Shown here: one piece after another, positions 1,932 through 63,835 of the stretch | Numbering within the stretch: the stretch's first letter is position 1 | How the letters are laid out: each line of letters starts with the position of its first letter | Origin: Chloroflexota bacterium | GTDB taxonomy: Bacteria > Chloroflexota > UBA6077 > FW602-bin22 > JAMCWG01 | Assembly (NCBI GenBank): GCA_023475235.1 | Contig: JAMCWG010000116.1 | Coordinates: 23,876-87,875, forward strand | Direction of reading: 5' to 3' | DNA length: 64,000 nucleotides | The notes under the pieces: generated by a model | What the model saw: the letters and a program-made list of their open reading frames with translations, nothing else | Databases searched by the model: none | What the model was told of the DNA's origin: nothing | Translations under genes and position numbers: made by a program

Positions 1932-3311
1932 TCAGTCGAACTGGAGCCCCAGAGCGGCCAGCTCGCCCTTGACCCGCAGATACTTCGCCTCCCATTCCGG
2001 CTTGATGCGGCCGCGCACCAGGTCGTAGCACTGGTCGATGTGCTGGCCGGGCTCGGCAGGCTTGCCGTTCAGGGTGGGGGCAAACTTATCCATCACCTCA
2101 TCGGCCCCGGCCCGCGTCAGCCCGGCCCGCTGGGTGGCCCGCGCCACCTCCGCCATCCACTCCGCCTCGAACGGCGTCTGCCCGGCGTTCATCATCGCCC
2201 GATGGTGACGGGAAGAGGTCATGTTGAGGCCGTTGATGGGGGCGGCTATGCTGCCGGTAGCGATCTCCCGCAGGTAGGTCTCCGAGCCGGGGCCGCAGAC
2301 CCAACCAGCACCCGTGAAACCGATGATGTTAGCGTGGCGGCTGAGCGCCTGGCAGACGACCGAGCGGGCCCGGCTCATCCGCCGGTTGGTGCCCACCGTC
2401 TTCAGGGTGGAGTTGGTGAGACGGCCGACGCCGCCCGTGTAACACCAGGCGTGGCGGTACACCAGGAAGCCGGCGATGGGCTTGGCCACACTCGCCACCA
2501 GCGCCCCCTCGACATCGCCGCAGAAGCCGCCCACGCTCTCGCCGCCGCCGCCGTTGACGGCGAACGCGCCGTAGTCGCGGTACACGATGGCCGCCGTCAG
2601 CAGGTCCTGCTCCATCTTCATATCGGGCAGGGTGGACAGGAGCACCCCATCGGTGCGACGCAGCCCGTAATCGGGGTCCATCGGCGCGATCAGGGCGGCA
2701 GCGCGGGTGCTGATGGGGTAGAGGGCGACGGCCATGCCGGGGCGCCCCGCCCTACAGACGCCATCGCGCATCCAGAACAGCTCGCGGCGGGCGGCATATG
2801 CCTCCGTCGGCAGGCCGAAGACCTCCCGCCCATCCGTCTGCGTGAAGTTGATGCCCTCCATATAGTCGCCCTCTGGCAGTCGGGCAGTGTCCTTTATCAC
2901 TAATGGCGCGTACTCCTCGCTGAAGGGGGCATGGTGGCCGGGGCACTGGTTCAGCCGCTCTTTCGTCTCGATCTGCTTCTTGGTGATCGTCCGGGCGTCG
3001 CGTCCCGTGCCGACGATCACCCGAGGCTGCGCCTCCCGGCAGGCTTCCAGCACCTCTTCGCGGCTGAACCGGACCACCCGGCCGGTGCTGATGCAGTACA
3101 TTCCTACTTCGGACAGGAAGGCAACCCCGGCCTCGAAGGCCCGGTCCGCCAGCGCATCGTCCGTATTGAACCAGGTGCCATCGTCGTCGCAGCGTATGTC
3201 GAAGCGCCTGGCAATCTCGGCGCACTTGCGAAAGAGGCCCATGTTCCAGGCCTTTTCCTCCATCTTCGGACCCTTCTGGGTCCGCTCGGCAATATCCAGC
3301 AGACTGATCAT
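1932..3311 (-). CDS. Monomethylamine:corrinoid methyltransferase (MtmB) family protein, non-pyrrolysine
   Basis: 459 aa with the MtmB layout (GMYCISTGRVV, GTGRDA, AGRPGM, GGFCG, CYDL, LGLQF). Ala sits at the position of Pyl (AGRPGMGV-O-GP in methanogen MtmB); no in-frame TAG. Confidence 0.88.
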   Translation of the reverse strand: MISLLDIAERTQKGPKMEEKAWNMGLFRKCAEIARRFDIRCDDDGTWFNTDDALADRAFEAGVAFLSEVGMYCISTGRVVRFSREEVLEACREAQPRVIVGTGRDARTITKKQIETKERLNQCPGHHAPFSEEYAPLVIKDTARLPEGDYMEGINFTQTDGREVFGLPTEAYAARRELFWMRDGVCRAGRPGMAVALYPISTRAAALIAPMDPDYGLRRTDGVLLSTLPDMKMEQDLLTAAIVYRDYGAFAVNGGGGESVGGFCGDVEGALVASVAKPIAGFLVYRHAWCYTGGVGRLTNSTLKTVGTNRRMSRARSVVCQALSRHANIIGFTGAGWVCGPGSETYLREIATGSIAAPINGLNMTSSRHHRAMMNAGQTPFEAEWMAEVARATQRAGLTRAGADEVMDKFAPTLNGKPAEPGQHIDQCYDLVRGRIKPEWEAKYLRVKGELAALGLQFD

Positions 3312-3365
3312 CGCCTATTTTTCTCCTACGAGTGGAAATAGCAATTGCGCGGCACGACCGGCGGG

Positions 3366-3596
3366 CTAACTGGATTTCGCCCAGGCTTCCAGCGCCTTCA
3401 ACAGCCAGTACAGAATGGCAAACAGCAGGGCCACGCCGATCATCACGCCCAGGCCGATCAACGCGAATTCCTGGCCGTAGATGAGCCACATCAGCGCGCC
3501 GCCGAACACCACAATGATGCCGAAGCCGCCGACCACGAGCACCCATTCGGTATGGGCCTTGTGCTCGCCTGGGGTCAGCGGCCCCTCGCTCCTCAT
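3366..3596 (-). CDS. Small two-TM membrane protein
   Basis: 76 aa with two hydrophobic segments; GGAGG RBS; co-oriented between ggt and the mtmB-like gene. Confidence 0.75.
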   Translation of the reverse strand: MRSEGPLTPGEHKAHTEWVLVVGGFGIIVVFGGALMWLIYGQEFALIGLGVMIGVALLFAILYWLLKALEAWAKSS

Positions 3597-3618
3597 GCCT
3601 GTCCTCCCGGCAGTTCGG

Positions 3619-5250
3619 CTAGTATCCCGTCGCCTCGCCGTCAGAGCGGGGGTCTACGCCGGCGTAGCGCACGCCGGTGACCGGGTCGACCTGGACCAGC
3701 ATCACCGACCCGCCGCCGGCATAGGATCCAACGACCTTCGTCCGATGCCCGAGCGCTTCCAGCCCGCCCACCACCCCGGCCGGGATGCGGTCCTCCAGTA
3801 TTAGCTGGAATGGGTCATCGATGTTGATGGGATCGGTGCCGGGCGTGCTGATCCAGCGCGGTGCTTCGGCGGCCTCCTGGACGTTCATCCCGTAGTCGAT
3901 GAGATTGCACAGTATCTGGGCGTTGATCTGAGGCTGCCGGTCGCCGCCCGGCGTGCCGCCGACGATATACGGCAAACCGTTCCGAAGGACCATGTAGCAG
4001 TTGAGGGTGTGCATGGTCTTCTTGCCGGGGGCGATGATATTTGGATGCCCCTCCACCAGGCTGAAGCCGCGGCCGGCCCGGTTGTTCGGCAGTATGCCGG
4101 TATCGCCCACCATCTGGGCGCAGCCGAAGGCATTCGACAGGCTGTGGATAAAGGAGATGGCATTGCCCTCTCGGTCCACGACGCAGAAATAGGTGGTGTC
4201 GCCGTCGAGCTCGCCGGGTTGGCCCGCCGCCGGATCATTGTTGGCCTTGCGTGGGTCGATCTCGGAGCTCCGCCGGGCGGCGTACTTCTTGGAAAGCATC
4301 CCCTTGAGCGGAAACTTCACGAAGGCCGGGTCGCCGGCGTACCTGACGCGGTCGCTGAAGGCCAGCTTCTTGGCTTCCACCTGGGTATGAATGCTCTCCA
4401 CGCTATTGAATCCCATCCCGGCAAGACTGAAGCACTCGAGCAGGTTCATCATCTCCAAATGGATGAGCCCCTGGGAAGGAGGAGCTGTCTGGAGCACATC
4501 GTAACCGCGATAGGTGACGCACAGCGGCTCGTACACCTCGGTGCGGTGCTCGGCGAAGTCCTCCGTCGTGAACAGGCCGCCGTTGGCCTGCGAGAACTCG
4601 ACGAACGCCCTGGCAATAGCACCTTTGTAAAAGATATCACGGCCGCCCTCGGCGATCATCCGCCAGCTACGGCCCATATCCTTCTGCACCAGGATATCGC
4701 CGGGCCGGAACGGCTCGCCGCCCGGCTTGAGGAGGACCTTCGTCGTGGTGGGGTAGCGGGCCAGAAGTGAAGCGTTCGCGATCATGCTCTCGCCCACGTG
4801 CTGGCTGACGGGGAAGCCGCTCTCGGCATACTCGATGGCCGGCTGGACCAGCTCAACCATCGAGCGCGTGCCGAACCGTTCTAGAATCGTGAAGTAGGCA
4901 TCCACGCCGCCGGGCACCGACGGGGCGAGCATACCGTGGGGAGGCATCTTCTGGTAGCCGCGACTGCGGAAGTACTCGGGCGTGGCGCCCCGGGGAGCGA
5001 CGCCGCTGCCGTTTATGCCGAAGACCCGCCCGGTCCTGGCCTGATAATAGATGGCGAACACATCCCCGCCCAGCCCGCACATCATCGGCATTGTAACGGT
5101 GAGCACGGCAGCCGTGGCGATGGCCGCGTCGGCGGCGTTACCACCAGACATCAAAACGCGCAGGCCAGCCGCGGAGGCCAGTTGCTGGGCCGAGGCTACC
5201 ACGCCGTTGGAGCACATAACCACGCTGCGGTGTTGGGTCGGTACAGACAC
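3619..5250 (-). CDS. ggt: Gamma-glutamyltransferase family Ntn hydrolase (YwrD/HpxW-like clade)
   Basis: GNAADAAIA, GLGGD, nucleophile GD-TTYFCVVD, HTLN and GTPGGDRQPQ motifs; GTG start at 5250 with AGGAGG RBS. Confidence 0.9.
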   Translation of the reverse strand: MSVPTQHRSVVMCSNGVVASAQQLASAAGLRVLMSGGNAADAAIATAAVLTVTMPMMCGLGGDVFAIYYQARTGRVFGINGSGVAPRGATPEYFRSRGYQKMPPHGMLAPSVPGGVDAYFTILERFGTRSMVELVQPAIEYAESGFPVSQHVGESMIANASLLARYPTTTKVLLKPGGEPFRPGDILVQKDMGRSWRMIAEGGRDIFYKGAIARAFVEFSQANGGLFTTEDFAEHRTEVYEPLCVTYRGYDVLQTAPPSQGLIHLEMMNLLECFSLAGMGFNSVESIHTQVEAKKLAFSDRVRYAGDPAFVKFPLKGMLSKKYAARRSSEIDPRKANNDPAAGQPGELDGDTTYFCVVDREGNAISFIHSLSNAFGCAQMVGDTGILPNNRAGRGFSLVEGHPNIIAPGKKTMHTLNCYMVLRNGLPYIVGGTPGGDRQPQINAQILCNLIDYGMNVQEAAEAPRWISTPGTDPINIDDPFQLILEDRIPAGVVGGLEALGHRTKVVGSYAGGGSVMLVQVDPVTGVRYAGVDPRSDGEATGY

Positions 5251-5379
5251 GATTCTCCTCCTCAGGAAAACGTTGTTGATTCGCTCCAGGCCTGAACCGG
5301 TCGCGTGGGGCATCTTCAGCTATGGCAGCAAGCCGATTGGTTTATGACAAAGCTTATGATAGAGCGACGATACCCGCGA

Positions 5380-5712
5380 TTATCCGGACGAGTCCCCCAG
5401 GGTCTCGCACAGCGCCTCGGTGACCATTCGGTAGATCCGTGAAGGATCGTAGACGACGAAGCGCTGGCGCTGTGTCACGAGGTCTTCCCGGTCCTTGCTG
5501 CCCATCCATTTGTTAAGCGCTTCCTGGCTATCCCATAGTTGTAGCAATACGAATTCATTCCGATCAGTAACGTTCTGGGCCGCCATCTGCCAGATCATAC
5601 CCCAGCGCCTGCGAACGGGCTCGGTCTCGTCAAGCCACTTGATGGCTTCCTGAGTCTTGCCCGGGAGAAAGCGTACCGGCCGGACGACCAGCACTCGTGG
5701 CATCTCTACCAT
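5380..5712 (-). CDS. Antibiotic biosynthesis monooxygenase (ABM)-like dimeric alpha/beta barrel protein
   Basis: 110 aa; PGK and FVLLQLWDSQEAL pattern typical of ABM; strong RBS. Confidence 0.7.
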   Translation of the reverse strand: MVEMPRVLVVRPVRFLPGKTQEAIKWLDETEPVRRRWGMIWQMAAQNVTDRNEFVLLQLWDSQEALNKWMGSKDREDLVTQRQRFVVYDPSRIYRMVTEALCETLGDSSG

Positions 5713-5840
5713 CTCCCTCCTCCTTCATGTTACCAGCTTCAGCCCTCCCCGCGAATCCGTGGGCATTATAACAGAAAGGCAGTTGCACGACGGTGTCGAC
5801 GGAGCTATGCCTGAAATGCGACGAACGACGAAACTTAACG

Positions 5841-5866
5841 TTAGGCCCGCGCACCCGCGGGCCTAA
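5841..5866. terminator. Hairpin downstream of lon
   Basis: TTAGGCCCGCG-cacc-CGCGGGCCTAA perfect stem. Confidence 0.6.
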
Positions 5867-5912
5867 GGTACTGGCTCTCCGAAGCCAGGGGCCACCGCCT
5901 CAGCCTTCTCAG

Positions 5913-8426
5913 CTAGCCCGGCGTCTCGTCGGCCAGCGCTCGCTCGCTCTCGGCGGCAGCCTCCCTGGTGCGATCGCCGACGCCCGCCGCTACCGGTTCC
6001 TCCTTCGCGGCCCCCGGGGCCGGGAAGCTCCCCTCCGGCAGCGCCGCCCGCAGCGCCTCGTCAATGCTTTCTGCCAGTACGAACGTCATCTCCGAGCGTA
6101 GCGCCGGCGGCAGGTCGTCGAGATCGATCTCGTTCCGCTTGGGCAGAATGACGGTGCGGATGCCGGCCCGATGGGCCGCCAGCACTTTCTCCTTGATGCC
6201 GCCTACCGGCAGCACCCTCCCCCGAAGGGTGATCTCGCCTGTCATCGCTACCCCCTGGCGGACGGGCTTGCCCATCAGCAGCGAGGCCAGCGACACCGTC
6301 ATCGCCACGCCCGCCGACGGGCCATCCTTCGGCGTCGCGCCGGCGGGGACGTGGACATGGATGTCGCTGTTCTCGAAGAAGTTGGCGGGAATACCCAACT
6401 GCCGCACGTTCGAGCGAATGTAGGTGAGCGCCGCCTGGGCGGATTCGCGCATGACATCGCCCAGTTGCCCGGTGAGCAGCAGGCCCTTGCTCCCGGCCAT
6501 CAGGCTGGCCTCGATGAAGATGATGTCGCCACCCACCGGCGTCCAGGCCAGACCCGTGGCTACACCGGGACGCTCGATGATCTCGGCAACCTCGCTGAAG
6601 TACGGTGGGCGGCCCAGGTACTTGGTCACCAGATCGGGAGTGACGACGATTGTCCCTTCTTGGCCTTCCGCCTTGTCTCTGGCCGCTTTGCGGCATATGC
6701 TGGCGATCTCCCGCTCCAGGTTGCGTACCCCGGCCTCGCGCGTATACTCGCGAATTATGCGTCTGAGGGCCTCCTCCTCGAAGCTGACCTCATCTTTGTT
6801 CAGCGCGTTCGCGGCGACCTGTTTGGAGACCAGATAGTTCTCGGCGATGCGAAGCTTCTCCTCCTCGGTATATCCCGGCAGGCTCAGGATTTCCATTCGG
6901 TCCCGCAGCGGCGCCGGTATCGGGTCGAGCAGGTTGGCCGTGGTAATAAACATCACATGCGACAGGTCGAAGGGAACATTCAAGTAATTGTCGCGGAAGT
7001 CCTTGTTCTGCTCCGGGTCCAGCACCTCGAGGAGGGCCGACGTCGGATCACCCCGCCAGTCGGCGCCCACCTTGTCCACCTCGTCCAGCATGAACACCGG
7101 ATCGGCCGACTCGGCGCGATGTATCGCCTGGACGATCCGGCCGGGCATCGCCCCGATGTAGGTGCGGCGATGGCCCCGTATCTCGGCCTCGTCCCGGATG
7201 CCCCCCAGCGACATGCGCACGAACTTGCGTCCCAACGCCCGGGCAATGGACTGGCCGAGGGATGTCTTTCCCACGCCGGGCGGCCCCACGAAGCAGAGGA
7301 TGGGCTCGCGCGACAGCTCAGACTCGCTGGTCCGCTCCCGCTTCAGCTTCACCACCGCCAGGTATTCGAGGATGCGCTCCTTGACCTTTTCGAGATCGTA
7401 GTGGTCCTCATCCAGGATCCGCCGGGCCCGCGGCACATCGATGGCCCCCTCGGTATACTTCTTCCACGGCATACCGGTGAGCCAGTCCAGGTAAGTCTTG
7501 ATGATGGAGTACTCGGGCGACGCCGGCTGCAGGCGTTCCAGTCGTCCCAGCTCGCGGCGCGCCTCTCGCTCCGCCTCTTCCGGCATATTGGCCTGCTCGA
7601 TCTTCTCGCGCAGCATGTTTATCTCGGCGGCTTGCTCGTCGGCCTCGCCCAGCTCTCGCTGGATCGCCTTCATCTGCTGGCGGAGAAGGTATTCGCGCTG
7701 CGTCTTCTCCATCTCATTCTGGGCCTGGGTCTGAATCTTCTTGCCCAGCTCCAGGACTTCCAGCTCGCGGGTCAGGAACGTCACCAGGCGCTCCAGCTTC
7801 GTCCGCACGCTGTCCAGCTCCAGCAACTCTTGCCGGAGGGACAGGTCCATTCGCAGGGCAGAGGCCAGGACATAGGCCAAATGCCGTGGATCGTCCACAT
7901 TGATGACCAGCGTGGACAACTCTTCTGGCATATGCGGCACCAGGGCAGCCATCCGCTGGAAAAGACCCTGGGCGTTGCGCATGAGCGCCTCCACCTCTAC
8001 GGTACTCTCCGCCTGCTCCCTCGATATCTCGATGCTGGCCCTGAGGTAGGGCTGCTCCTGGGTGTAACCGACTATGCGGATGCGCTCGAGTCCCTGGACG
8101 ACGAGGCGGACTGTGCCGTCGGGCACGCGCAGCATCTGGGCCACGCGCGCTACGGTGCCCATCGTGTACAACTGCCCGGGGCCCGGCAGGTCCACCCGGG
8201 GGTCCTGCGACGCCACCAAGCCGACCAGCCGGTTGCTGGTGGCCACATCGTTGACCAGGAGGAGCGACCGTTCCTGTCCCACGAGTATCGGGTATACGGT
8301 CAAGGGGTAGACGACGGTGTCCTTCAGCGGCAGGATGGGCAGCTCGTTAGGGATGCTAGGCGGACCTTCGTTGACCTCTCCTGGAGGGGACAAGTTATTC
8401 TCAGCCAACTGGCGCTCCTGTATCAC
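5913..8426 (-). CDS. lon: ATP-dependent Lon protease
   Basis: LON N-domain, Walker A GPPGVGKT, Walker B MLDEVDK, catalytic PKDGPSAG (Ser) and GGIKEKVLAA (Lys). Confidence 0.98.
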   Translation of the reverse strand: MIQERQLAENNLSPPGEVNEGPPSIPNELPILPLKDTVVYPLTVYPILVGQERSLLLVNDVATSNRLVGLVASQDPRVDLPGPGQLYTMGTVARVAQMLRVPDGTVRLVVQGLERIRIVGYTQEQPYLRASIEISREQAESTVEVEALMRNAQGLFQRMAALVPHMPEELSTLVINVDDPRHLAYVLASALRMDLSLRQELLELDSVRTKLERLVTFLTRELEVLELGKKIQTQAQNEMEKTQREYLLRQQMKAIQRELGEADEQAAEINMLREKIEQANMPEEAEREARRELGRLERLQPASPEYSIIKTYLDWLTGMPWKKYTEGAIDVPRARRILDEDHYDLEKVKERILEYLAVVKLKRERTSESELSREPILCFVGPPGVGKTSLGQSIARALGRKFVRMSLGGIRDEAEIRGHRRTYIGAMPGRIVQAIHRAESADPVFMLDEVDKVGADWRGDPTSALLEVLDPEQNKDFRDNYLNVPFDLSHVMFITTANLLDPIPAPLRDRMEILSLPGYTEEEKLRIAENYLVSKQVAANALNKDEVSFEEEALRRIIREYTREAGVRNLEREIASICRKAARDKAEGQEGTIVVTPDLVTKYLGRPPYFSEVAEIIERPGVATGLAWTPVGGDIIFIEASLMAGSKGLLLTGQLGDVMRESAQAALTYIRSNVRQLGIPANFFENSDIHVHVPAGATPKDGPSAGVAMTVSLASLLMGKPVRQGVAMTGEITLRGRVLPVGGIKEKVLAAHRAGIRTVILPKRNEIDLDDLPPALRSEMTFVLAESIDEALRAALPEGSFPAPGAAKEEPVAAGVGDRTREAAAESERALADETPG

Positions 8427-8884
8427 CCATTGGGGAGGGAAATCGACACGCGAGTCGGCCGCGGAGTTTCTTCCGCCACCTTGGGCAGCGTGATAGAGAT
8501 CATGCCGTTCTGGTAGCTGGCCTCCACCCGCTCGGCGTCTATGGCTACGGGTATTGGGACTTCGGCACGGAACTCCCCGTACCAGATATCCATCTTATGA
8601 ATGACGGTTCGAGGTGGTGTATCCTCCTCATCCCGCTTGCCCGACACGACCAGGCAATCTGGATACAGCAATACCTCGATCTTGTCTTCAGCCGTGCCTG
8701 CTACTTCAATCTTCACGACCAGGTCAGAGGCCGTTTCGTAGACATCCGTACGGGGGCTACAGACGCCGCGTGGGGTACGAGGTAACGCGCTGCACACATC
8801 CCACCATGCATTCATCATCTGTTCCACACCGCGTTCCATCCCTACCACGGCCCTCAGAGGACTATAAATGAACCGCACTCGCAT
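8423..8884 (-). CDS. Hsp20/alpha-crystallin small heat-shock protein
   Basis: PRTDVYET, EVAG, YGEF, VEASYQNGMISITLPK motifs; stop overlaps the lon start (GTGA). Confidence 0.92.
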   Translation of the reverse strand: MRVRFIYSPLRAVVGMERGVEQMMNAWWDVCSALPRTPRGVCSPRTDVYETASDLVVKIEVAGTAEDKIEVLLYPDCLVVSGKRDEEDTPPRTVIHKMDIWYGEFRAEVPIPVAIDAERVEASYQNGMISITLPKVAEETPRPTRVSISLPNG

Positions 8885-8991
8885 TTGCTGCACCCCTTGT
8901 GAAGCTACCTGATCACCCGCCGCTCGGCACAAGCACTATCCATCGCCAGTGCCGAACGAATCGCCGCTCTTTTCCCCTCTGTCTTCTTAGA

Positions 8992-9020
8992 ATCATAACA
9001 CGAGGTGTGACTGCCGACAA
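8992..9020 (-). promoter_or_regulatory. Putative promoter of hsp20-lon
   Basis: TTGTCG-17 nt-TATGAT with an extended TG motif. Confidence 0.5.
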
Positions 9021-9029
9021 GTTCAGGTG

Positions 9030-10102: not shown

Positions 10103-10115
10103 CAGGTGGTGACGG

Positions 10116-10472
10116 TTGCGGTTGCAGACCGTGTGTCCGAGTTGGAAGAGACGTGTTGTTGAAAGTATTTGCAGGCGACTTGAAAAAGCCCAGCGAGTTT
10201 CCGAGCACCACGAGGAGTTTGAGGCTGCCGTGTGCGAGGCTTTCTCCTTCCTCGGCGTTGACGCTGAGCACATCGGTGGCGCCGGCGATACCGATGTGCT
10301 GTTGAAGACGCAAGATGCACTCGTCTTCCTTGGAAGCCGAGCTGTGGGCATCCTCCAGGAAGTGCCCGGAAGCGGCGAGGCCTGCTGTCTCGCTATGAGC
10401 CCCGAAACCGCCAGACGTCGCCTCTCGGCCCTGGCCGAAGCGTTTGGCAGTACTACCGAATTCGTCGAATAA
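10116..10472 (+). pseudogene. Fragment resembling a PD-(D/E)xK restriction-endonuclease-like domain
   Basis: EEFEAAVCEAFSFLGVDAEHIGGAGDTDVLL resembles Mrr-like nuclease cores; no following (D/E)xK and no clear RBS; adjacent to the IS. Confidence 0.4.
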
Positions 10473-10540
10473 CTCCTATAATGCTAATACCGTAACCCCA
10501 CGCGCGGCAACGGCCGCCGCATCTCAATTCACAGGAGAGG

Positions 10541-11230: not shown

Positions 11231-11239
11231 GCATTCAGG

Positions 11240-11277
11240 GAATCCCTGCGCAGATCCTGGAACCTGCGCAGGGATTC
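11240..11277 (+). terminator. Stem-loop after the RraA-family gene
   Basis: GAATCCCTGCGCAG ... CTGCGCAGGGATTC, 14-bp perfect stem. Confidence 0.6.
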
Positions 11278-11321
11278 TCCAGACGACGGCCCTACAGCTT
11301 GATGTGGGGGATCAATCGGCG

Positions 11322-12497: not shown

Positions 12498-12592
12498 GAC
12501 CAGGCGTGCTCAGTCTCCAATGGCCTTCAGGCCCAGTGCCTGCATCTGTTGATGCTGGCAGCAATTTGCGGCCAGGTCCGTGGGCCGCAGGG

Positions 12593-12618
12593 GTAGGGGC
12601 CGACCCGCGTGTCGGCCC
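12593..12618. repeat. GTAG-type REP-like palindrome
   Basis: GTAGGGGCCGACCCGCGTGTCGGCCC between convergent genes. Confidence 0.65.
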
Positions 12619-12627
12619 GAACGATGG

Positions 12628-51024: not shown

Positions 51025-51026
51025 GG

Positions 51027-54735: not shown

Positions 54736-54752
54736 CGTACCATCTCCGCCGA

Positions 54753-55682: not shown

Positions 55683-57019
55683 GTCAACTCTCCGTCACGC
55701 CGACCCAGAATGACCACTAGGCCACAGGTGAACCAGAAAATCGTGGCCAGGTCAACCAGGAAGTACGAGTTATCAACCAGACCGTGCACCACGAAATCGA
55801 CCATGCTGGCCAGCGCTCCCAGCGCCAAAGCCTGTTGGGTGACATCTCGTGCCCCACGGTAGATTTCCCATCCTTTCGTGAAAAACTTGAACAGTAGCCA
55901 CCCTATCGCGACGAGGCCTACCACGCCCAGGCTGAGCCAGAAGTCCAAGATAATATTATGCGGATGTGAGAGGTCCAGGTCAATGATAGCCTCGCCCGCC
56001 ACATATTTGTCGCGATATAAGTATAAGAAGTTGTCCAGTCCGACCCCAAAGACCGGGTGGTCTCGCAGCATATTGAGGGCCGATTCCCACAGCCGAAGGC
56101 GCAGGAAGGTGGTCCCCTCGTCCAGCGCCAGGTGGGAGCGCAGGCGCTCCCCGCCGGCCAGCAGCACCAGTCCAAGCCCCGCGGGCGCCACTGCGCCTGC
56201 CATCCGCGCCAGCCGCCGCCGGCCACCGGCGGCCCCCACGAAGAGCGCGGCCGCACCCAGTCCCAGCCACGCGCCCCAGGAGTAAGTGAGCACCACCGCC
56301 ACCCCCATCGCCAGGCACGCCGCTCCCCAGGCCCACCGCCGGTCTCGCCCGAACGCAGCCAGGCACGCCGCCAGGGGCAGCAGCCGCCCCAGGAACAGGC
56401 CGACGTTGTTCGGCGAGCCATAGAACGCCTTGACCCGCATCACCCCCTCGGCAGTTATCGTATCCCCTGTCAGGAAGTACTGGTAGGCACACACCAGGGC
56501 GATGATGACGCCGCCGGCAACCAGGGCCCCGACCAGCAGCAAGACCTGGGAGGGCCGCCTGATCGTGTCCGTGAGCAGCACGTAGAACAGCGCCGGCTCG
56601 ATGATGACCACACGCAGGACTCGCGCGCTCTCTCGGAGATGCTCCGATACCAGGAGCGAGGCCAGGGCCGCCACGATCAGGATGGCCAGCGGAACATCGA
56701 AGGGGGTGCGCGGCAGGTGGAATTCCCGGCGCACCGCCCGGCGAGCGGCCCAGGCCACGGTGCAGGCCAGGATTAGCACCTCCACCGGCGAGAAGGCCAG
56801 GCGTCCGAAAGAATGGGTCACCAGGTAGAACGGGGTCGACAGCAGGACGAAGGCCAGCGCGACATCGAGGCGAAAGTAGGCCAGCGCGGCGAAGCCGAGC
56901 AGGGCGAGCAGGCTGACCGCCGGCCAGGGAGAGAAGTGGTACACCACGAGCACGGCCCCCATTGCCACAGTCGCCTTCGCCGTGGTGGAGACAGGAGCGC
57001 GCGCCAGCAAGCCGATCAT
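55673..57019 (-). CDS. O-antigen ligase (Wzy_C) family membrane protein
   Basis: YGSPNN, RLRLW, GVGLDNF, SHPHN and HGLVDN motifs; ATG overlaps the upstream TGA (ATGA at 57016-57019). Confidence 0.88.
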   Translation of the reverse strand: MIGLLARAPVSTTAKATVAMGAVLVVYHFSPWPAVSLLALLGFAALAYFRLDVALAFVLLSTPFYLVTHSFGRLAFSPVEVLILACTVAWAARRAVRREFHLPRTPFDVPLAILIVAALASLLVSEHLRESARVLRVVIIEPALFYVLLTDTIRRPSQVLLLVGALVAGGVIIALVCAYQYFLTGDTITAEGVMRVKAFYGSPNNVGLFLGRLLPLAACLAAFGRDRRWAWGAACLAMGVAVVLTYSWGAWLGLGAAALFVGAAGGRRRLARMAGAVAPAGLGLVLLAGGERLRSHLALDEGTTFLRLRLWESALNMLRDHPVFGVGLDNFLYLYRDKYVAGEAIIDLDLSHPHNIILDFWLSLGVVGLVAIGWLLFKFFTKGWEIYRGARDVTQQALALGALASMVDFVVHGLVDNSYFLVDLATIFWFTCGLVVILGRRDGELTWT

Positions 57020-58755
57020 AGCCTTGTTCGCGTATCGGGAAGCCGGACGACGGGCCGGCCCAGCCACCAGTACAGAAGGAGCATCATAATGATGATAGCG
57101 CCGGAGACTATGCTGATGGTAGCCCAAGTCGAGATCACCTCGGTCCGGTGGACCTTGAAGCCATCGATGCCGACCCGGCTGCCCCTGGACGCCGGGTTCC
57201 GGTTGCCGGAGAGCGACAGGCGCAGCACGTGCTTGCCCGAGGGCAGGCCGTTGCTCACCGGCACCAGCCTCTGCTCAACGGTCTGTTCACTGTAAAGATC
57301 GAGGTACGACTGTCCCAGCCGGTCGGAGGGCAGCAGATTGGCCACCGCCCCGTCGACCGTGATCGACGCGATGCCCGCCTCCGGCCCCATCTGGACCAGC
57401 AGGTCGATTCCGCCGCCGTCGAACGCAATGTTGAGGCTGTCGCCAGTCTGTTCCGTCACTGTCAGCAGGCCGCCGCTGGCCTTGCTATCGACGGCCAGCC
57501 GCCAGGCTCCCTCTGTCGTCACGGCTGGATTGGTGCTCTGGTAAGTGCCCGGCTCGGCCACGGACAACGCGGCGGTCTGCGCCTTTACCGCTCGGTAAAG
57601 TAGGCGCGGCGTGAATCCCACATCGACCATCCGGAAGTAATAGTCCGAATGGTCGGGCAATATCTGCCCGGCTTGGCGGAAGTACCAGATGCAGAAAATG
57701 CCGGCCCAGGGCCATTCCTCTCTGGCTTTGCGGATCGCATCGATGGTGAACTGGGCCTGCTGCTGCTCGCTCACCCGGCCCCAGCGAAGGGCGCCGGGAG
57801 GAAAGTCTTCCGGGGAAGCGTTCCAGCCGAACTCGTTGAACCAGACCGGCTTTCCGCCGTCGCCGTATCGCTCCATAATCTGCCGGCTGAGCTCGACCCG
57901 CCGGAAGTTCAGCCGCTGCGGATCGGCCGGGTCGTCCGGGGTCTCGCTGAAGCCGTAGGCATTGGCGAAAAGGATATCGAAGTAGTTCTTCGCGCCGTTG
58001 CGGTACATGCCTTCCAGGTAGTCGAGATCGTTGATCGCGTCCGAAGAGCGCTCCAGCGTTTGGGCCAGAGGCGCGCTCAGGATGAAGACGTTCGGATCGG
58101 CGGCCTCGGCCCGCTCATAGCCGATGCGCAGCAACTGCACATACGCCGCCGGGTCCAGTTGCCGACTGCCCCATTCCGGCCGGATATTCGGCTCGTTCCA
58201 AAGCTGGTAATAGCGTATCTTACCGCGATAATGGGATACCACTGCGGAGACGAAATCGCCGTAGTCCTCGAAGTTATCCGGCGGCGCCTCCCGCAGGCTA
58301 TTGTCCTTCCGCGTCCACGCAGGGGGGCGGTCCAGCCGGGCGATCACCTGCATCCCATTCTGAAGTGCCAGATCGACGATATGGTCGTATTTCTCCCAGG
58401 TGCTGCGATTCTGCCGATCGTCCCAGAACCGCCCCTTTTTCGGCTCCAGCTCTTCCCACGGGAACTGCTGTTTCACCCAGCCGATGCCTGCCTCGTGGGC
58501 CATCTGGATGGTCTTCTCAACTTTCCAGGGTTCGGCCTCCCATTGAAGGAAGAAGTTTGCCCCGTAGGGGTTCACATCCGTGTGCGGCATAACGCGGAGA
58601 GTGGTGGGAGCAACGCTGGCCGCCGATCCCTGGGTCTGAAGTTGGGCCAGCAAGCTGGCGACGAAAACCAATGCCGCCAGCACGCCGACCACCGTTATCA
58701 GACCCTTGGCCTGGCGACGCGCCGGCCGGCCCCGGATGTTCAAAGCGGCCACCAC
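57016..58755 (-). CDS. Clan GH-A glycoside hydrolase (GH5/GH39-like) with beta-sandwich domain and C-terminal TM
   Basis: WNEPN acid/base and FNEFGW nucleophile; N- and C-terminal hydrophobic segments. Start uncertain. Confidence 0.85.
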   Translation of the reverse strand: MVAALNIRGRPARRQAKGLITVVGVLAALVFVASLLAQLQTQGSAASVAPTTLRVMPHTDVNPYGANFFLQWEAEPWKVEKTIQMAHEAGIGWVKQQFPWEELEPKKGRFWDDRQNRSTWEKYDHIVDLALQNGMQVIARLDRPPAWTRKDNSLREAPPDNFEDYGDFVSAVVSHYRGKIRYYQLWNEPNIRPEWGSRQLDPAAYVQLLRIGYERAEAADPNVFILSAPLAQTLERSSDAINDLDYLEGMYRNGAKNYFDILFANAYGFSETPDDPADPQRLNFRRVELSRQIMERYGDGGKPVWFNEFGWNASPEDFPPGALRWGRVSEQQQAQFTIDAIRKAREEWPWAGIFCIWYFRQAGQILPDHSDYYFRMVDVGFTPRLLYRAVKAQTAALSVAEPGTYQSTNPAVTTEGAWRLAVDSKASGGLLTVTEQTGDSLNIAFDGGGIDLLVQMGPEAGIASITVDGAVANLLPSDRLGQSYLDLYSEQTVEQRLVPVSNGLPSGKHVLRLSLSGNRNPASRGSRVGIDGFKVHRTEVISTWATISIVSGAIIIMMLLLYWWLGRPVVRLPDTRTRL

Positions 58756-58900
58756 CAATGACCAGAAGAAGAGCCAACAATCGAGATGGGCATGGCGCGA
58801 GTATAGCAAAACGGCGCGGCCTAACGCAATTTGAAGGCAGGACGAGGTCTCACCAACAATTGAGGCATGATCGGCCTATGCCGCTTGGCGATACGGGGTT

Positions 58901-59116
58901 ACCTCACCCCCTATCCCCTCGCCAGTCGCCAGACCCGCCTGCCATAGGCAGGCCCGTCATCCTCACCAGCAGTCAAAGAAGGCGACCCCTCGCCACGGCG
59001 AGAGTGCCGCAGGCATCTTGGCGGGAGGCGAGTCGCCTTCGGAGACCTCTCCGCCTGCGGAGAGGGGGAACGTAAGGCGTTGACTCCCTCCATAACTGCG
59101 GCCAAGGGGGTGAGGT
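58901..59116. repeat. Mosaic of nested palindromes (CCTCACCCCC/GGGGGTGAGG family)
   Basis: Outer ACCTCACCCCCT ... AGGGGGTGAGGT; inner GAAGGCGAC/GTCGCCTTC, CTCGCCACGGCGAG and CCTCTCCGCCTGCGGAGAGG stems. Confidence 0.65.
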
Positions 59117-59362
59117 CTGCCCCGCCGTACCATTTCGCACTCAAGTAAGAGGATAAGCACGCCTTGTTTGTCAGTGGAATTGCTCGGGTAGGAAACACAT
59201 GGTTTTGTTGTTATGGGAAAAGCTTTATCATGCTCGTAATGGTGGCTGTCGCTCGTCATCCGTGCGCTGGGACAATCCAGGCTGTGCGCCTGCATACAGG
59301 GGGTTCTTAACGGTCCGCCAGAAGGGCCCGCATCCGGCGATCGTCGAGGAGGGAATAGAGCT

Positions 59363-60312
59363 ATGTTGTATCGACTGGCACTTGCCGCTGGCATCATCTC
59401 GGCCATTGTTCTGACGGCGTTCCTGAGCGGCATCGGCAACGCCATCGCCTCCGGTGGAGACGCCGCCCAGCACTCCCTCACCGCGGCCGCGCCGGCACCT
59501 GCGCCCACTCCTACTTCACCTGCCCTCGTGCCGCCGGTCTCCGCCACCTATCCCGATGCGACCTATGGCCTCGCCGAGGAGCGGAACATCGGCGCGTACA
59601 CGCTACGGCTGTGGCAGAACATGTCGGCCAGGAAGTACCCCCCATCGGACATCGTCACCATCTCGGCTCCCGGGCAGGACACCATCCAGATCGATCCCGT
59701 CCTGAAGCTTGACGACCTCACCGGCGCAGACGTGATCGTCCACACCTTCTCGGGCGGTGCCCATTGCTGCTTCTCCACGATAATCTACGACCTGGGGCTT
59801 GCCCTTCCCTCCATAGCCCCGAGAACGGGGGAAGGGCCTGCCCTGACCAAGGTGCTCGAAACGAGGCCCTCCAACTGCGGCGGCAACTTGCAGGACCTCG
59901 ACGGAGATGGCGTCTATGAGTACGTCACCTGCGACGATCTCTTCGCCTACACCTACTGCTGCTACGTGGGGTCGCCAAAGGTGCAGGCAATACTCAAGTA
60001 CGAGCATGGCGAAGGCTACGTGCCGGCCAGCCCCGAGTTCGCCGATATGTACGCGCACGATATTGCCCAGAACACAAGAACGGCCGAGGGTGGGAAGCCC
60101 GGCGGGCAATGCGATGGGATGACACGACCAAGTGCTCTGTCCTGCCCGTGGTCCTGGACTACCTGTACTCCGGCCGGCCCGACGAGGCGTGGGCGACGCT
60201 GTACCGCCTGTACCCCTATCCGGACGTCGAGGACTTCCGAGCCGAGATAGAGCAGGCTATCAACGGAAGTCCGTTGTTCACCTGCGCCCCGAGGAGCGAG
60301 GATTCGCAGTGA
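59363..60312 (+). pseudogene. Exported Cys-rich hypothetical protein with a frameshift near 60113
   Basis: Signal peptide, SGGAHCC and DLDGDG motifs; the coding-like sequence continues in another frame (WDDTTKCSVLPVVLDYLYSG...). Confidence 0.7.
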
Positions 60313-60403
60313 CGGGGGCAGCCCCGCCCCGATTTGCCACCCGGTATCTGCAGCCGCTTATGCTTTCCAGGGGCAGCAGGGGCAGCCCGCACGGCCGGCG
60401 CGT

Positions 60404-61234
60404 CTAAAGGCCGTCGGCCACCTCCCTCGTCCTATCCAGGTCGGGGAAAGGCCAGGCCTGCGACAGTTCGCCGGCGGCTTCCTTCAGCATCGGCACGAAG
60501 CTCGGCAGCTTCTCCGATGTGAAACGGCTGGAGGGCCCCGCCAGCCCCAGCGCGGCGACAACCCTGCCTTCCCGATCGTACATCGGGACTGCGACGGTGT
60601 TCACATCGAGCGCACGCTCCCCCTCGTTGGTGGCATACCCCTGGGCCCGGACCTTGCGCAGATCCACGCGGAACGCCTCGAGGGAGGTAATAGTGTTGGG
60701 GGTCAGGCGGGGCAAGCCGGCTGCCGCCAGCCTGGCCAGCGCCTCCTCTTCCGGCAGGCTGGCCAGATAGACCTTCTCCGATGCAGAGCAATGTAGCGGT
60801 TGGACTCTCCCCAATCGGTGGACCACCTGCACCTCGTGCATCGAGTCCTCCTGGGCGTACAGGATCCGCCCGCCCGGGCCGACCAGGACCAATTGCGCCC
60901 GCTCGCCGCTGGCTTGCACCAGACGGCGAAGCACGGACTGGCAGAGCTCGGGGAAGCTCGCGGAGGTGGCGTGACGGTTGGCCAGGGCGACGACCTTGAA
61001 GGTCAGGAAATACCGCCGGGAATACGGGTCCTGCTGAACGTAACCCTCGTCCTCGAGGCTGGCCAGGATGCGAGAGACCATGCCCTTCGTCACCCCAAGC
61101 TTCTCGCTGATCTCCAGGACCGATACACCGTCAGGAAGGCCGGCCATAATCTCCATAGCCTTCACCGCCCGCTGCACGGATTCCAGCCTTGCCGGCAGCC
61201 GAGCAGGGTTCACGCGCTTCCGAGCCAACTTCAT
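60404..61234 (-). CDS. IclR family transcriptional regulator
   Basis: N-terminal HTH (SVQRA...ISEKLG), PLHCSA, LTPNTIT, VRAQGYA and VAVP motifs. Confidence 0.95.
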   Translation of the reverse strand: MKLARKRVNPARLPARLESVQRAVKAMEIMAGLPDGVSVLEISEKLGVTKGMVSRILASLEDEGYVQQDPYSRRYFLTFKVVALANRHATSASFPELCQSVLRRLVQASGERAQLVLVGPGGRILYAQEDSMHEVQVVHRLGRVQPLHCSASEKVYLASLPEEEALARLAAAGLPRLTPNTITSLEAFRVDLRKVRAQGYATNEGERALDVNTVAVPMYDREGRVVAALGLAGPSSRFTSEKLPSFVPMLKEAAGELSQAWPFPDLDRTREVADGL

Positions 61235-61409
61235 CTGTGCGGACCCTCCTTTTCAGCGACAGACGTGCTGAAACTTGGTTTCGGGTTACAGGAATTATAG
61301 GTGCCCCGCGCCGGACGTCAACGATGGGCCACCGTTTCGTCGGGCTACGGAGACAACGGCAGACTGTCCCGGCGACCTTCCTCACGTCGGAACGGAGGCG
61401 ACCGACGGG

Positions 61410-62345
61410 CTAGATCAGCTTGGCCCGCTGGAAGTACACGGTGTAAGCGGAAACGGCCATCCGGATGCCATCCACCGCTATCTCGGCCCGTCGCTCCGGC
61501 GCGAGGCGCGATCCTCGCGGGCTCTGGGCGATCCGGCCCTCCAGATACGCGGCCAGCCGCCGGCCTACCTCGACCTTGTCGGCGCCCTCCCTGAGCGCAC
61601 CCAGCACCACCTCGGTGTAGCCGCGGGTGGTCGCCTCGGCCTCTGCCAGGGCCCGCTCCACCTCTGGCCACACGCCGTTATGCGAACTGACGATGGCACT
61701 GGGACGCAGGCCGGCAATCATATGGTAGGTCTCTATAGCCACATTGGGATCGAAGGACGGCGGTGCAGCCGACGGCACGTACACGTCGCCCTCGGCATTG
61801 TACCCGCCCGCCGCCTCGCCGGCAAACAGCATCCCCGTCAGGCTATCGTGCAGCACGATGTGGTGCGGCGCGTGACCCGGCGACGCGTGCACGCGCAGCT
61901 CTCTCCCCTGCCCCAGGGAGATGGCCTCGCCACCTCTCACTACCCACACTCGCTCCCGCGGGACCGGCAGCATCGGGCCGTAAATCTCCTCGAACTGGTC
62001 CCCGAAGACCTGGCGGGTGCTTTCCACGAGGCGCGTCGGATCGATCATATGGCGGGCGCCGGCCTCCGGCAGGACGATGGTGGGCCTGGCGAGCTGCTGC
62101 GCCAGCAGGCCCACACCACCGGCGTGGTCGATGTGGATGTGGGTGGGCACGATGTAGTCCAGGCCGGCAGGGTCGTACCCGGCCTCGCGAATGCCGGCCG
62201 TGACTTCGGCGTTGCGGGACGCCGGCGCGCTCTCCACCAGCGCCATCTTTCCCTCGCCCACCACCAGGAAGGCATGCGAGAATGGCACGCGCGGGTGCGG
62301 GGTCGTCGGTATATGGAATATCCCTTTCGCAAGTTCCTTGACCAT
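61410..62345 (-). CDS. MBL-fold metallo-hydrolase
   Basis: THIHIDHAGG, PGHAPHH, FAGE and SHNG motifs. Confidence 0.92.
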   Translation of the reverse strand: MVKELAKGIFHIPTTPHPRVPFSHAFLVVGEGKMALVESAPASRNAEVTAGIREAGYDPAGLDYIVPTHIHIDHAGGVGLLAQQLARPTIVLPEAGARHMIDPTRLVESTRQVFGDQFEEIYGPMLPVPRERVWVVRGGEAISLGQGRELRVHASPGHAPHHIVLHDSLTGMLFAGEAAGGYNAEGDVYVPSAAPPSFDPNVAIETYHMIAGLRPSAIVSSHNGVWPEVERALAEAEATTRGYTEVVLGALREGADKVEVGRRLAAYLEGRIAQSPRGSRLAPERRAEIAVDGIRMAVSAYTVYFQRAKLI

Positions 62346-62461
62346 AATCTGGCTCACCTCATCTGCTGGTTGGCGGTTATTGGCGTCCCCCTGAACGCTC
62401 CCATATTCGGACGTGGGGACCGGGCGACCCGGCGTCGGGGCCAGGCTGCCAGGCCCCACCT

Positions 62462-63835
62462 TTACGCGAATTGCAGGCCGACACCCGATAGCATCTGCTT
62501 CGCCTGCAGGTACACCTCGTGGTACGCCGGCATAGGCCGATGGTGCGCCCAGTCGTAGACCTCGCGCACATCGCGGGCCGGCTCCGGCTTGCGGCCTTCG
62601 ATCAGCTCCGCCAGCTTACGGTAGAAGACCTCGCCGTTCGACCGCGTGTGCACGCTGTGCATCACGGCGTTGCAGACCTCCCAGGTCCACTCCGCCTCCA
62701 GCGGCGTCTGGGCCTGGTTCACCTGCGCGCGCTGGTGGCGGACCTTGTCCACATTAGCGCCGTTCAGCGGCCCTCTGGCGAAGTTGTAGGCCAGCTCCAG
62801 AAGCTGGGTGAGCGTCCCCGGCCCCGATTGAGTGTACCCGCCGTTGAAGTACGGCAGCGGGCAGTAGCGGTTTAGCACCTGACAGGCCAGCGACGACGCC
62901 CAGTAGGTGTTCGGTTGCGGCTGCAGCCGCTCGGCCATGCGGCCGGTGGCGCGGCCGATGGAGGCCGGACCGAACCGGTCTCGATAGCAGATCCAGCCGC
63001 CCACCAACTGGCATACGGCCTCGATGACCGCCCCCTCGACGCCGCCACAGAAGCCGCCGGCGGTGGCGCTGGCCACCCCGCGGGCGAAGGCGCCGTAATC
63101 GTTGTAGACGATGGCCGCCGTCAGCATGTCCTGCTCCATCTTTACATCCGGCAGCATCGTCAGCAGGATGCCGTCGGTCCGCCGCAGGCCATAGTCGGGG
63201 TCCATCGGCGCCACCAGCACGGAGGCCCGGGTGCTGATCGGGTACAGGGCCACCCCTATCCCGGGCCGGCCGGCCTGGCGAATGCCCTGCCGCAGCCAGG
63301 CGAGCTGGCGCCGGGAGGCATAAGCCTCCAGGGGCATACCGTACACCTCGCGGCCGTCCACGGCCCGGAAGTTGAAGCCTTCGATCAGGTCGGCGCTCGG
63401 TATCTGGGCCATGTTCTTGACGCAGATGGAGCCTAGCTCTTCTGAGAACGGGGCGTGATGTCCGGGCACATGGCTCAGCCCCTCCGTTTCCTCGATCCGC
63501 CTGCTCTTTATCACCCGGACGTCGCGGCCCGTCCCCACGGCGATCTCCGACGGAGCCTCGCGAATGGCCTGGAGCACCTCGTCCCGCGTCAATTGGATGA
63601 CGCGGCTGGTAGTCAGGCAGTAGATGCCCTGCTCGCTCAAGAAGTCGACGGCCGCGCGGTATGCGGCCTCCACCTGCGCATCATCATGGTTGAAGAAGCT
63701 GCCGTCGTCCGGGCATTTTATGCCGTACTTCCCGGTCAGCTCTTCCATCTTGCGGAACAGGCTCAGGTTCCACGTCTTCTCCTCGACCTTCGGCCCCTTC
63801 TGGCTCCGCTCGGCAATGTCCAGCAATGAGATCAT
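62462..63835 (-). CDS. MtmB family methyltransferase, non-pyrrolysine (paralogue of 1932-3311)
   Basis: MISLLDIAER, GTGRD, AGRPGIGV-A-LYP (Ala at the Pyl site), GGFCGG and GLQF; no in-frame TAG; AGGAG RBS. Confidence 0.88.
   Translation of the reverse strand: MISLLDIAERSQKGPKVEEKTWNLSLFRKMEELTGKYGIKCPDDGSFFNHDDAQVEAAYRAAVDFLSEQGIYCLTTSRVIQLTRDEVLQAIREAPSEIAVGTGRDVRVIKSRRIEETEGLSHVPGHHAPFSEELGSICVKNMAQIPSADLIEGFNFRAVDGREVYGMPLEAYASRRQLAWLRQGIRQAGRPGIGVALYPISTRASVLVAPMDPDYGLRRTDGILLTMLPDVKMEQDMLTAAIVYNDYGAFARGVASATAGGFCGGVEGAVIEAVCQLVGGWICYRDRFGPASIGRATGRMAERLQPQPNTYWASSLACQVLNRYCPLPYFNGGYTQSGPGTLTQLLELAYNFARGPLNGANVDKVRHQRAQVNQAQTPLEAEWTWEVCNAVMHSVHTRSNGEVFYRKLAELIEGRKPEPARDVREVYDWAHHRPMPAYHEVYLQAKQMLSGVGLQFA

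Follow-up and report, generated by a model that had tools for sequence, protein, structure and literature searches.

The window analysed here, a stretch of 64,000 nucleotides from the Chloroflexota bacterium assembly GCA_023475235.1 (contig JAMCWG010000116.1, hereafter C112), carries two open reading frames, ORF1 and ORF2, which encode genuine, intact proteins with the fold of the monomethylamine methyltransferase MtmB, lack pyrrolysine (Pyl) and fall in subclade B2 of the MtmB family. Our results indicate that both belong to a widespread Pyl-free branch of this family, here termed clade B, whose members probably demethylate compounds other than methylamine. We put at roughly 0.7 the probability that ORF1 and ORF2 are substrate-specific methyl-donor:corrinoid Co-methyltransferases (MT1s) whose donor is most likely not free monomethylamine. 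This reading is supported by the family and the fold of the two proteins, the absence of Pyl, the signature of the clade, the link between the clade and corrinoid proteins in genomes, and the presence of partner genes in this one. The two genes are:

1932–3311, minus strand: ORF1, non-Pyl MtmB-family protein of subclade B2, 459 amino acids, ATG start, TGA stop (Pfam MtmB match, AlphaFold2 model, trees)
62462–63835, minus strand: ORF2, non-Pyl MtmB-family protein of subclade B2, third of the MtmB-type genes in a tandem operon, 457 amino acids, ATG start, TAA stop

The initial annotation described two full-length MtmB-family ORFs without an amber codon, and both frames are indeed open throughout, with no in-frame TAG and no other internal stop. 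The hidden Markov model search that it proposed gave matches to Pfam MtmB (PF05369) over nearly the full model, far above the cut-off of 25 bits: ORF1 scores 166.2 bits (1.5e-48, model positions 2–437 of 450) and ORF2 136.7 bits (1.4e-39, positions 2–450 of 450). No NCBIfam model matches either ORF, nor does Pfam MTTB (PF06253, COG5598), which represents the MttB superfamily. The two proteins share 49% identity over 458 residues, and the only solved structures matched by sequence are those of Methanosarcina barkeri MtmB (1L2Q/1NTH, 1TV2-4; E 7e-34). In the HMMER alignment to 1L2Q/1NTH, the Pyl column (X) pairs with the Ala of GRPGMAV-A-LYP, and a MAFFT alignment with eight methanogen MtmB genes carrying TAG at codon 202 gives the same column, occupied in ORF1 by Ala196; the two alignments thus agree on the replacement of Pyl by Ala that had been read from the sequence. 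The four shared motifs reported at that stage also stand at identical residue numbers in the two ORFs, namely PGHHAPFSEE at residue 124, AGRPG[MI][AG]VALYPISTRA at 188, APMDPDYGLRRTDG at 209 and LPDxKMEQDxLTAAIVYxDYGAFA at 228. Two points need correction. The span 1932–63835 had been treated as one item, and consists of two separate loci, which lie about 59 kb and some 50 unrelated genes apart; moreover, "two paralogues" is an understatement, given that the genome contains 15 MtmB-family genes, none with an internal stop.

The fold agrees with the family assignment. For ORF1, an AlphaFold2 model based on an alignment of 121 sequences reached a mean predicted local distance difference test score of 95.2 and a predicted template-modelling (TM) score of 0.93. 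A Foldseek search matches it to 1TV2, 1L2Q and 1NTH at E ~4e-36, with a TM-score of 0.88, a root-mean-square deviation of 2.6–2.7 Å and 25% identity, so that, with the Pfam matches, the proposed membership in the MtmB family is borne out; structures of MttB and MtgB reach a TM-score of only ~0.5. In the model, Ala196 lies in a short strand (residues 195–197) directly followed by Tyr198-Pro199, in agreement with the anchoring of Pyl202 of MtmB to a barrel strand (PMC9842639). The model places the signature residues His127, Glu152/Asn155, Tyr198-Pro199 and Glu273 on successive strands or immediately behind them. In the alignment, His126/127 correspond to T-G of the GGPTGSP loop in the Pyl enzymes and to M-G of GGPMGG in a methanogen Pyl-free group. 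The C-terminal ends of the strands form the active-site face of a TIM barrel, on which the signature residues would accordingly be expected to lie. The proposal that His and Tyr stand in for Pyl is compatible with their conservation and with this predicted topology.

The sequences used for comparison came from 62 related loci, obtained by scanning species-representative genomes with clade-B sequence patterns. Three of the paralogues in the present genome (on contigs C14, C171 and C22) are of type A, with the motifs GIQT / VVNN-GP / GGFSG, and the other 12, ORF1 and ORF2 included, are of type B, with PGHH / A-x-YP / GGFCG. A FastTree phylogeny was computed for 133 sequences, comprising the 15 paralogues, 97 full-length sequences from the related loci, 8 methanogen genes with TAG at codon 202 and 13 Pyl-free genes whose genomes contain Pyl-MtmB genes as well; ORFs shorter than 430 amino acids, or with fewer than 380 aligned residues, were left out. 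Type B (73 rows, 12 from this genome and 61 from others), type A (13 rows) and a type from Bathyarchaeia with the motifs GGVIES / SAC / GGWAG (SAC type, 26 rows) each form one clade with support of 100, and the three together form one clade (support 99) apart from both the Pyl-MtmB and the methanogen Pyl-free genes. Within clade B, subclade B1 (40 rows, support 97) includes the copy on contig C84, and subclade B2 (23 rows, support 94) the other 11 copies of this genome, among them ORF1 and ORF2. A quick IQ-TREE run with 61 rows retained B1 (97) and placed ORF1 and ORF2 in a B2+B0 set (97). The deep relations are unsure, because the tree searches were short, without bootstraps, and several long branches meet there.

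Conservation within clade B points to a pocket of its own. His127, Asn155, Tyr198 and Pro199 are each present in 73/73 proteins, Glu152 in 69/73 and Glu273 in 72/73, and each of these residues occurs in less than 15% of 60 family members outside clade B. The HH pair's second His, like the Tyr-Pro of YP, is thus invariant in a distinct clade, as the claim of a separate signature required, and both ORFs retain His127, Glu152, Asn155 and Tyr198-Pro199. At 73 near-invariant clade-B positions ORF1 deviates three times and ORF2 once, the median being one. In a wider set of 119 sequences (ORF1, ORF2 and 117 of 120 listed homologues of 440–490 amino acids), the second His is found in 118, and Tyr198, Pro199 and Thr202 in all 119; the Pyl column holds Ala in 80, Val in 32 and Cys in 5.

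The assembly measures 2.85 Mb in 196 contigs, with a GC content of 63.6%, 74.8% completeness and 2.6% contamination. The contigs that bear paralogues have 61.7–66.2% GC, as compared with 63.8 ± 1.4% for all contigs >5 kb. Neither Pfam MTTB nor PylS_Cterm has a match in the genome, PylD matches only at 20 bits against a cut-off of 150 bits (PylB and PylC were not searched), and no tRNA with a CUA anticodon is present among the 34 tRNAs found; since a quarter of the genome is missing, the absence of pyl genes is not proven.

The genome-wide search for corrinoid proteins that had been suggested returned seven B12-binding matches, two of which, on contigs C84 and C55, are methyltransferase-type corrinoid proteins with cap domain and DxHxxG motif. 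On C84 (L011:4859–9123), a corrinoid protein (B12-binding_2 and B12-binding domains, DxHxxG) is followed by an MtmB-type gene, the sole B1 copy in the genome, and then by a RACo activase with Fer2, RACo middle and RACo C-terminal domains, a classical cassette. The refuting case named in the initial annotation, a genome with no corrinoid partner at all, therefore does not apply. The same contig has a 45-bit Rfam match to a group II intron domain at L011:42–113. Contig C55 carries a URO-D-type gene, a gene for 251 amino acids, the second corrinoid protein (DxHxxG) and a pterin-binding protein. The second of the two RACo_C_ter genes in the genome is on C183, together with a second pterin-binding protein and CdhC/acetyl-CoA synthase, which implies that the organism has the Wood-Ljungdahl pathway, at least in its core, to take up methyl groups. 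Candidates for the second methyltransferase (MT2, methyl-corrinoid:acceptor) are 15 URO-D-family matches and, next to the corrinoid protein on C55, the pterin-binding protein, none of them linked to ORF1 or ORF2; two related URO-D-like genes adjoin the paralogues on C86 and C43. Binding-protein genes of the SBP_bac_5 family lie directly upstream of three paralogues (C131, C171 and C43), and four more are near paralogues.

The association with corrinoid proteins recurs in other genomes. The 62 loci come from bacteria of the Chloroflexota (Anaerolineales, Dehalococcoidales), Neomoorella stamsii, Methylomirabilota, Clostridia, Spirochaetales, Syntrophales, Desulfobacterota, Nitrospirota, Acidobacteriota and Aminicenantes, and from the archaeal Archaeoglobi and many Bathyarchaeia. 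A homologue of the C84 corrinoid protein is encoded in 47 of them, RACo in 14, and URO-D-like and M20 genes in 2 each; de novo clustering of all ORFs in the 62 loci yielded no further family in more than 7 loci, antisense shadows aside. Together with the C84 cassette, the 47 loci uphold corrinoid dependence as the likeliest function, as first proposed. Neighbours annotated by spot checks were transporters, GntR regulators and DUF1638 and, in a single case, a gene of the MttB family. Seven of the 12 B2 genes from other genomes directly adjoin a gene for a corrinoid protein, and 1 lies one gene away; no such gene occurs in the DNA examined around the other 4, which was short or cut in 3 cases. 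In a metagenome-assembled genome of the Spirochaetaceae (L031:10001–13655), a B2-type gene and an MttB-family gene (Pfam MTTB 1.5e-113) share one corrinoid-protein gene.

More than half of the corrinoid-protein genes in the related loci (26/49) have a full-length MtmB-type gene on either side, and all 26 pairs are heterotypic: one member is always B1, the combinations being B1 + SAC (14), A + B1 (8), B1 + B2 (3) and B0 + B1 (1), and a pair from the same subclade never occurs. For the remaining 23, at most one neighbour is classified, in many cases where a contig ends. That a B gene is always there is partly owed to the clade-B patterns with which the loci were collected; that a second MtmB type, different from the first, also lies beside the corrinoid-protein gene is not.

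Family genes are fewer in five other genomes with clade-B genes, which have 1, 2, 2, 3 and 5. Among 40 relatives (26 of the same order and 14 of the same class), two have the MtmB family, with 6 genes and 1 gene, all 7 with Pfam-model scores like those of type A or above. Of 201 genomes sampled from the phylum to which the Archaeoglobi genome belongs, 22 carry the MtmB family, mostly as Pyl genes. The 15 copies of the present genome, 11 of them close together in B2, thus point to an expansion within the lineage. The superfamily as a whole is small: among 1.84 billion representatives at 50% identity, the number of matches falls from 673 at E <= 1e-3 to 352 at <= 1e-10 and to 115 at <= 1e-30; at 90% clustering and <= 1e-10, the 8000 candidates scored per search contain 447 clusters with ORF1 as query and 290 with the type-A protein from C14. 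The closest homologues among the matches listed are 80–87% identical, and the best relatives that bear a name are metagenome-assembled genomes of Chloroflexota.

From these data we infer how ORF1 and ORF2 might work with putative partners encoded elsewhere in the genome of this anaerobe. The substrate would bind at the C-terminal mouth of the TIM barrel, where the strand that bears Pyl202 in Methanosarcina MtmB would instead offer the small residue Ala196, and the pocket would be lined by His127, which follows strand 1, by Glu152/Asn155 of strand 2 and by Tyr198-Pro199, right behind strand 3. The methyl group would pass by an SN2 reaction to the Co(I) of a corrinoid protein encoded on C84 or C55, the cofactor being re-reduced by a RACo-type activase, and a pterin-binding methyltransferase would hand the methyl group on to tetrahydrofolate and thence to acetyl-CoA synthase. 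Without the methylammonium adduct of Pyl, the donor would be expected to carry a good leaving group, as in a quaternary ammonium or sulfonium compound, or to be protonated by His127 or Tyr198.

Several known systems offer a comparison. M. barkeri MtmB (1NTH, 1L2Q, 1TV2) shares with the ORFs the Pfam family, the length, the TIM-barrel fold (TM 0.88, 2.6 Å, 25% identity), the GRPGM leading into the Pyl strand and the family-wide Gly70, Cys73, Asp221 and GGF/Y-x-G. It differs in having Pyl202, encoded by an amber codon, where the ORFs have Ala, GPETSLS where LYPISTR follows in the ORFs, and T-G of the GGPTGSP loop in the place of HH; furthermore, the ORFs belong to a Wood-Ljungdahl bacterium and not to a methanogen, no pyl genes were found with them, and no mtmC-like gene is adjacent. 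Non-Pyl MtmBs have been known for years, and most of a tree of 1,061 sequences has no assigned function (PMC13044021). The only one with demonstrated function according to that study, published in 2026, is MtqB of Methanococcoides methylutens Q3c, a non-Pyl MtmB homologue that methylates its cognate corrinoid protein from tetramethylammonium or choline and has small activity with monomethylamine (PMC13044021). The statement in the initial annotation that non-Pyl MtmB has no assigned substrate is thereby outdated.

MtqB resembles the ORFs in being a Pyl-free MtmB homologue that acts with a corrinoid protein, and it appears, from motifs, scores and trees, to belong to a different clade. This comparison was made with 13 non-Pyl genes from Pyl-MtmB-bearing genomes that are only presumed to include MtqB orthologues. 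These genes score 455–657 bits on the Pfam model versus 136–166 for the ORFs, branch next to Pyl-MtmB and outside A+SAC+B, whereas the ORFs lie inside clade B (support 100), and have the motifs GGPMGG / ALMGPGTP / GGTxIG as against PGHH / A-x-YP / GGFCG. The Met of GGPMGG aligns with His126 and another Met with Ala196; the ligand surroundings of MtqB contain a conserved Met, a Cys and aromatic residues (PMC13044021), to which the aligned Mets might correspond. The non-Pyl members of the MttB superfamily (COG5598), MtgB, MtcB, MtpB and MtyB, are likewise Pyl-free MT1s that act with a corrinoid protein, RACo/RamA and an MT2 (PMC13044021), but they form a separate family, to which the ORFs have no Pfam match and a structural match of TM ~0.5 only. 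Closer in kind is Ga0180325_111810 of 'Candidatus Formimonas warabiya' DCMF, a Pyl-free MtmB-superfamily protein of an anaerobic bacterium which has no function assigned to it, was the most strongly induced protein of that strain on dichloromethane and which, compared here by its description only, is ~30% identical to other family members (PMC9768040).

Two other systems were considered and set apart. The O-demethylase of Bathyarchaeia that is also called 'MtgB' (PMC10989822) was ruled out as a clade-B protein, being ~300 amino acids long and described as without homology to known MT1s, and the mlp gene clusters were set aside, MtmB not being mentioned in PMC10418091. The MtmB of PMC5424206 is the Pyl-containing enzyme only, and MtmB homologues are not dealt with in an Asgard preprint or a Skagerrak preprint. 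In the literature covered, listings and parts of main texts, there is no mention of an HH/YP clade or of heterotypic pairs; the kind of protein, a non-Pyl MtmB, is known, and clade B, its signature and the heterotypic pairing are without description there.

The genes around ORF1 and ORF2 in the window, all on the same strand, are:

763–2031, minus strand: hypothetical protein downstream of ORF1 (ORF list; sub-threshold match to DUF4424 only)
3366–3596, minus strand: ORF of 76 amino acids between the GGT gene and ORF1 (gene call; no Pfam match)
3619–5313, minus strand: gamma-glutamyltransferase (GGT) upstream of ORF1 (G_glu_transpept 9.5e-139; TIGR00066 409 bits, over the cut-off)
5380–5712, minus strand: antibiotic-biosynthesis-monooxygenase-like (ABM) small protein upstream of the GGT gene (Pfam ABM 1.5e-06)
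60404–61234, minus strand: IclR-family regulator at the end of the ORF2 operon (Pfam IclR_C 5.1e-37, HTH_IclR 2e-12)
61410–62459, minus strand: MBL-fold protein directly downstream of ORF2 (Pfam Lactamase_B 5.1e-21)
63911–64000, minus strand: 3' end of an M20/M25/M40 peptidase-family gene (C112:87786–89066; Pfam Peptidase_M20 4.8e-29 and M20_dimer)

The genes preceding ORF1 are thus, in order, those for the ABM-like protein, GGT and the 76-residue product. An internal Met and a hydrophobic stretch in the hypothetical protein downstream suggest a start near 1911, about 20 nucleotides after ORF1. Just past the window end lie two further MtmB-type genes on the minus strand, C112:89120–90496 and C112:90595–91968, the latter encoding a protein 80% identical to ORF2, so that the operon runs from MtmB-type 90595–91968 through MtmB-type 89120–90496, M20, ORF2 and the MBL-fold gene to IclR. 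The MBL-fold gene leaves a gap of 2 nucleotides to ORF2 if a GTG start is used, and all NCBIfam beta-lactamase models fall far under their cut-offs for its product. A second MBL-fold gene adjoins the B2 paralogue on C11 (L016:9829–10845); the two did not co-cluster in an all-against-all comparison of neighbour proteins. According to Rfam at gathering thresholds, neither the window nor the loci on C84, on C55 and at the end of C112 contain a riboswitch or another regulatory RNA. Binding proteins, amidohydrolase-type genes and GGT in these neighbourhoods give only hints as to the substrate.

Some observations concern the other paralogues and the assembly around them. The sequencing runs listed for this DNA include none of RNA; their DNA contigs span the ORF2 operon in pieces, with breaks, and the best of these runs may come from the source sample itself. 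In one run, low-depth contigs (depths 2.75–11.6) show alternative joints among paralogous MtmB-type genes at L012:9128–13171, with skips of 3293 and 2529 bases and one going back 3189; these could be due to strain variation, recombination between paralogues or noise in the assembly graph. After the type-A gene on C14 (L009:13021–17655) come genes for an Rrf2 regulator, a small 4Fe-4S protein resembling nitrite/sulfite reductases and a cysteine-synthase-like PALP enzyme, neighbours that may link it to sulfur metabolism. The type I-C CRISPR-associated genes Csd1 and Cas5d lie directly downstream of the C16 paralogue (L018:6176–8630), which contains a short run of N that gives three X in its translation. 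A gene for a SelA-like pyridoxal-phosphate enzyme comes after the C180 paralogue (L014:1956–3125), and the genome has a selenocysteine tRNA (anticodon tca).

Several facts weigh against ORF1 and ORF2 being corrinoid-dependent MT1s. None of the seven B12-binding matches is on C112, hence none is in the window, as had been noted from the start, and only two methyltransferase-type corrinoid proteins are available for 15 candidate MT1s; a third, small B12-binding match on C89 was taken as mutase-type because the gene after it was read by eye, with no family search, as a MeaB/ArgK-type GTPase. Just one of the 15 paralogues, that on C84, adjoins a corrinoid-protein gene, and the GGT, M20 peptidase-family, MBL-fold and IclR neighbours have no intrinsic pointer to methyl transfer. 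As to the residues, the first His of HH is present in 105/119 sequences, with Leu, Met or Gly in the other 14, and the Cys of GGFCG (Cys264) in 86/119, with Ala or Phe in the other 33. ORF1 has Ala at residue 273, as the sole exception to Glu in clade B, and Ile at position 436, where 72/73 clade-B proteins have Pro. The three-dimensional placement of the residues is based on secondary structure and barrel topology, not on distances. Finally, no report of substrate, activity or expression for clade-B members was found in the literature covered.

Zinc activates the methyl donor in MtaB, and clade B could by analogy be a metal-dependent MT1, in which His126/His127 and Glu152 (or Glu273, Cys264) hold Zn2+ and activate an O- or S-methyl donor such as methanol, methylthiols or methoxylated compounds. 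The HH pair and the (near-)invariant acidic residues at adjacent strand ends would fit such a site, as would the frequent Cys of GGFCG, the URO-D-type (MtaA-like) genes beside the two B2 paralogues on C86 and C43, and an array of URO-D and corrinoid-protein genes in one Dehalococcoidales locus (L025). However, the first His is replaced in 14/119 sequences and Cys264 in 33/119, the B1 genes of Bathyarchaeia read GGFAG, and the Pfam and NCBIfam family searches of both ORFs returned no known Zn motif. We regard metal dependence as unlikely, and a universal Zn site that uses Cys264 is ruled out by the 86/119 count.

A bolder extension of the MT1 reading would keep the Pyl-independent MtmB-fold solution, with its invariant His/Glu/Asn/Tyr pocket, and add a complete methyl-transfer module, made of a corrinoid protein and two MtmB-type proteins of different subclades with no conventional MT2 encoded nearby, in which B1 acts as MT2. 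If this were true, one B1 gene (that on C84) and 14 substrate-specific MT1s, including ORF1 and ORF2, would make the bacterium a broad-range scavenger of methyl groups; we consider it a long shot.

It is improbable, to a greater degree still, that the copies without a corrinoid-protein neighbour, ORF1 and ORF2 included, have left corrinoid chemistry and now bind or hydrolyse compounds in concert with the hydrolases and transporters encoded nearby. This would account for the 14/15 paralogues that lack an adjacent corrinoid-protein gene, for the recurring neighbours SBP_bac_5 (upstream of three), MBL-fold (two), M20 peptidase-family and GGT, and for the loss of the clade-invariant Glu273 in ORF1. 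Yet both ORFs keep the signature residues with just 3 and 1 deviations per 73 positions, genes of the same subclade abut corrinoid-protein genes in other genomes, and many MT1 genes per corrinoid protein are usual, as in strain DCMF, which has 82 MttB-superfamily genes (PMC9768040).

The name 'monomethylamine:corrinoid methyltransferase', under which homologues are found in databases, is probably wrong for clade B. Taken at face value, it would make the ORFs Pyl-free monomethylamine enzymes, and the GGT next to ORF1 might free methylamine from gamma-glutamyl-methylamide; the small monomethylamine activity of MtqB (PMC13044021) lends this some support. But the names are automatic family transfers, Pyl is described as important or necessary for methylamine methyltransferases (PMC13044021), the Pyl column holds Ala, Val or Cys in surroundings unlike those of both Pyl-MtmB and the methanogen non-Pyl group, and long, well-supported branches separate clade B from the Pyl-MtmB genes, which together leave this reading very improbable. 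Scarcely credible, lastly, is the view that some clade-B proteins, chiefly B1 and not ORF1 or ORF2, are simply MT2s: the 26/49 corrinoid-protein genes between MtmB-type genes of different subclades, one always B1, and the lack of a recurring conventional MT2 family in the related loci would suit it, but the B gene is partly built into the collection, in one Archaeoglobi genome a single B1 gene accompanies a corrinoid protein as the sole member of the family, the B2 gene and the MttB-family MT1 across one corrinoid-protein gene fit two MT1s sharing one carrier, and B1 and B2 have the same signature.

Taken together, the evidence favours ORF1 and ORF2 as Pyl-free MT1s, and this bears on how such genes are read. 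Genes called mtmB have been counted as evidence of methylamine use in metagenomes, for example in Bathyarchaeia (PMC10321748). An amber codon is absent from the genes sampled here from Bathyarchaeia, Chloroflexota, Nitrospirota, Spirochaetales and Neomoorella, and their pocket residues differ; inferences of methylamine use may therefore be wrong for a large proportion of 'mtmB' genes. Clade B offers a defined target, with a small superfamily, an invariant signature and natural partner genes for the corrinoid protein and RACo. The 15 copies in a single genome suggest a wide range of substrates feeding the Wood-Ljungdahl pathway, and identifying the substrates of clade B would lengthen the list of methylated compounds usable by anaerobes.

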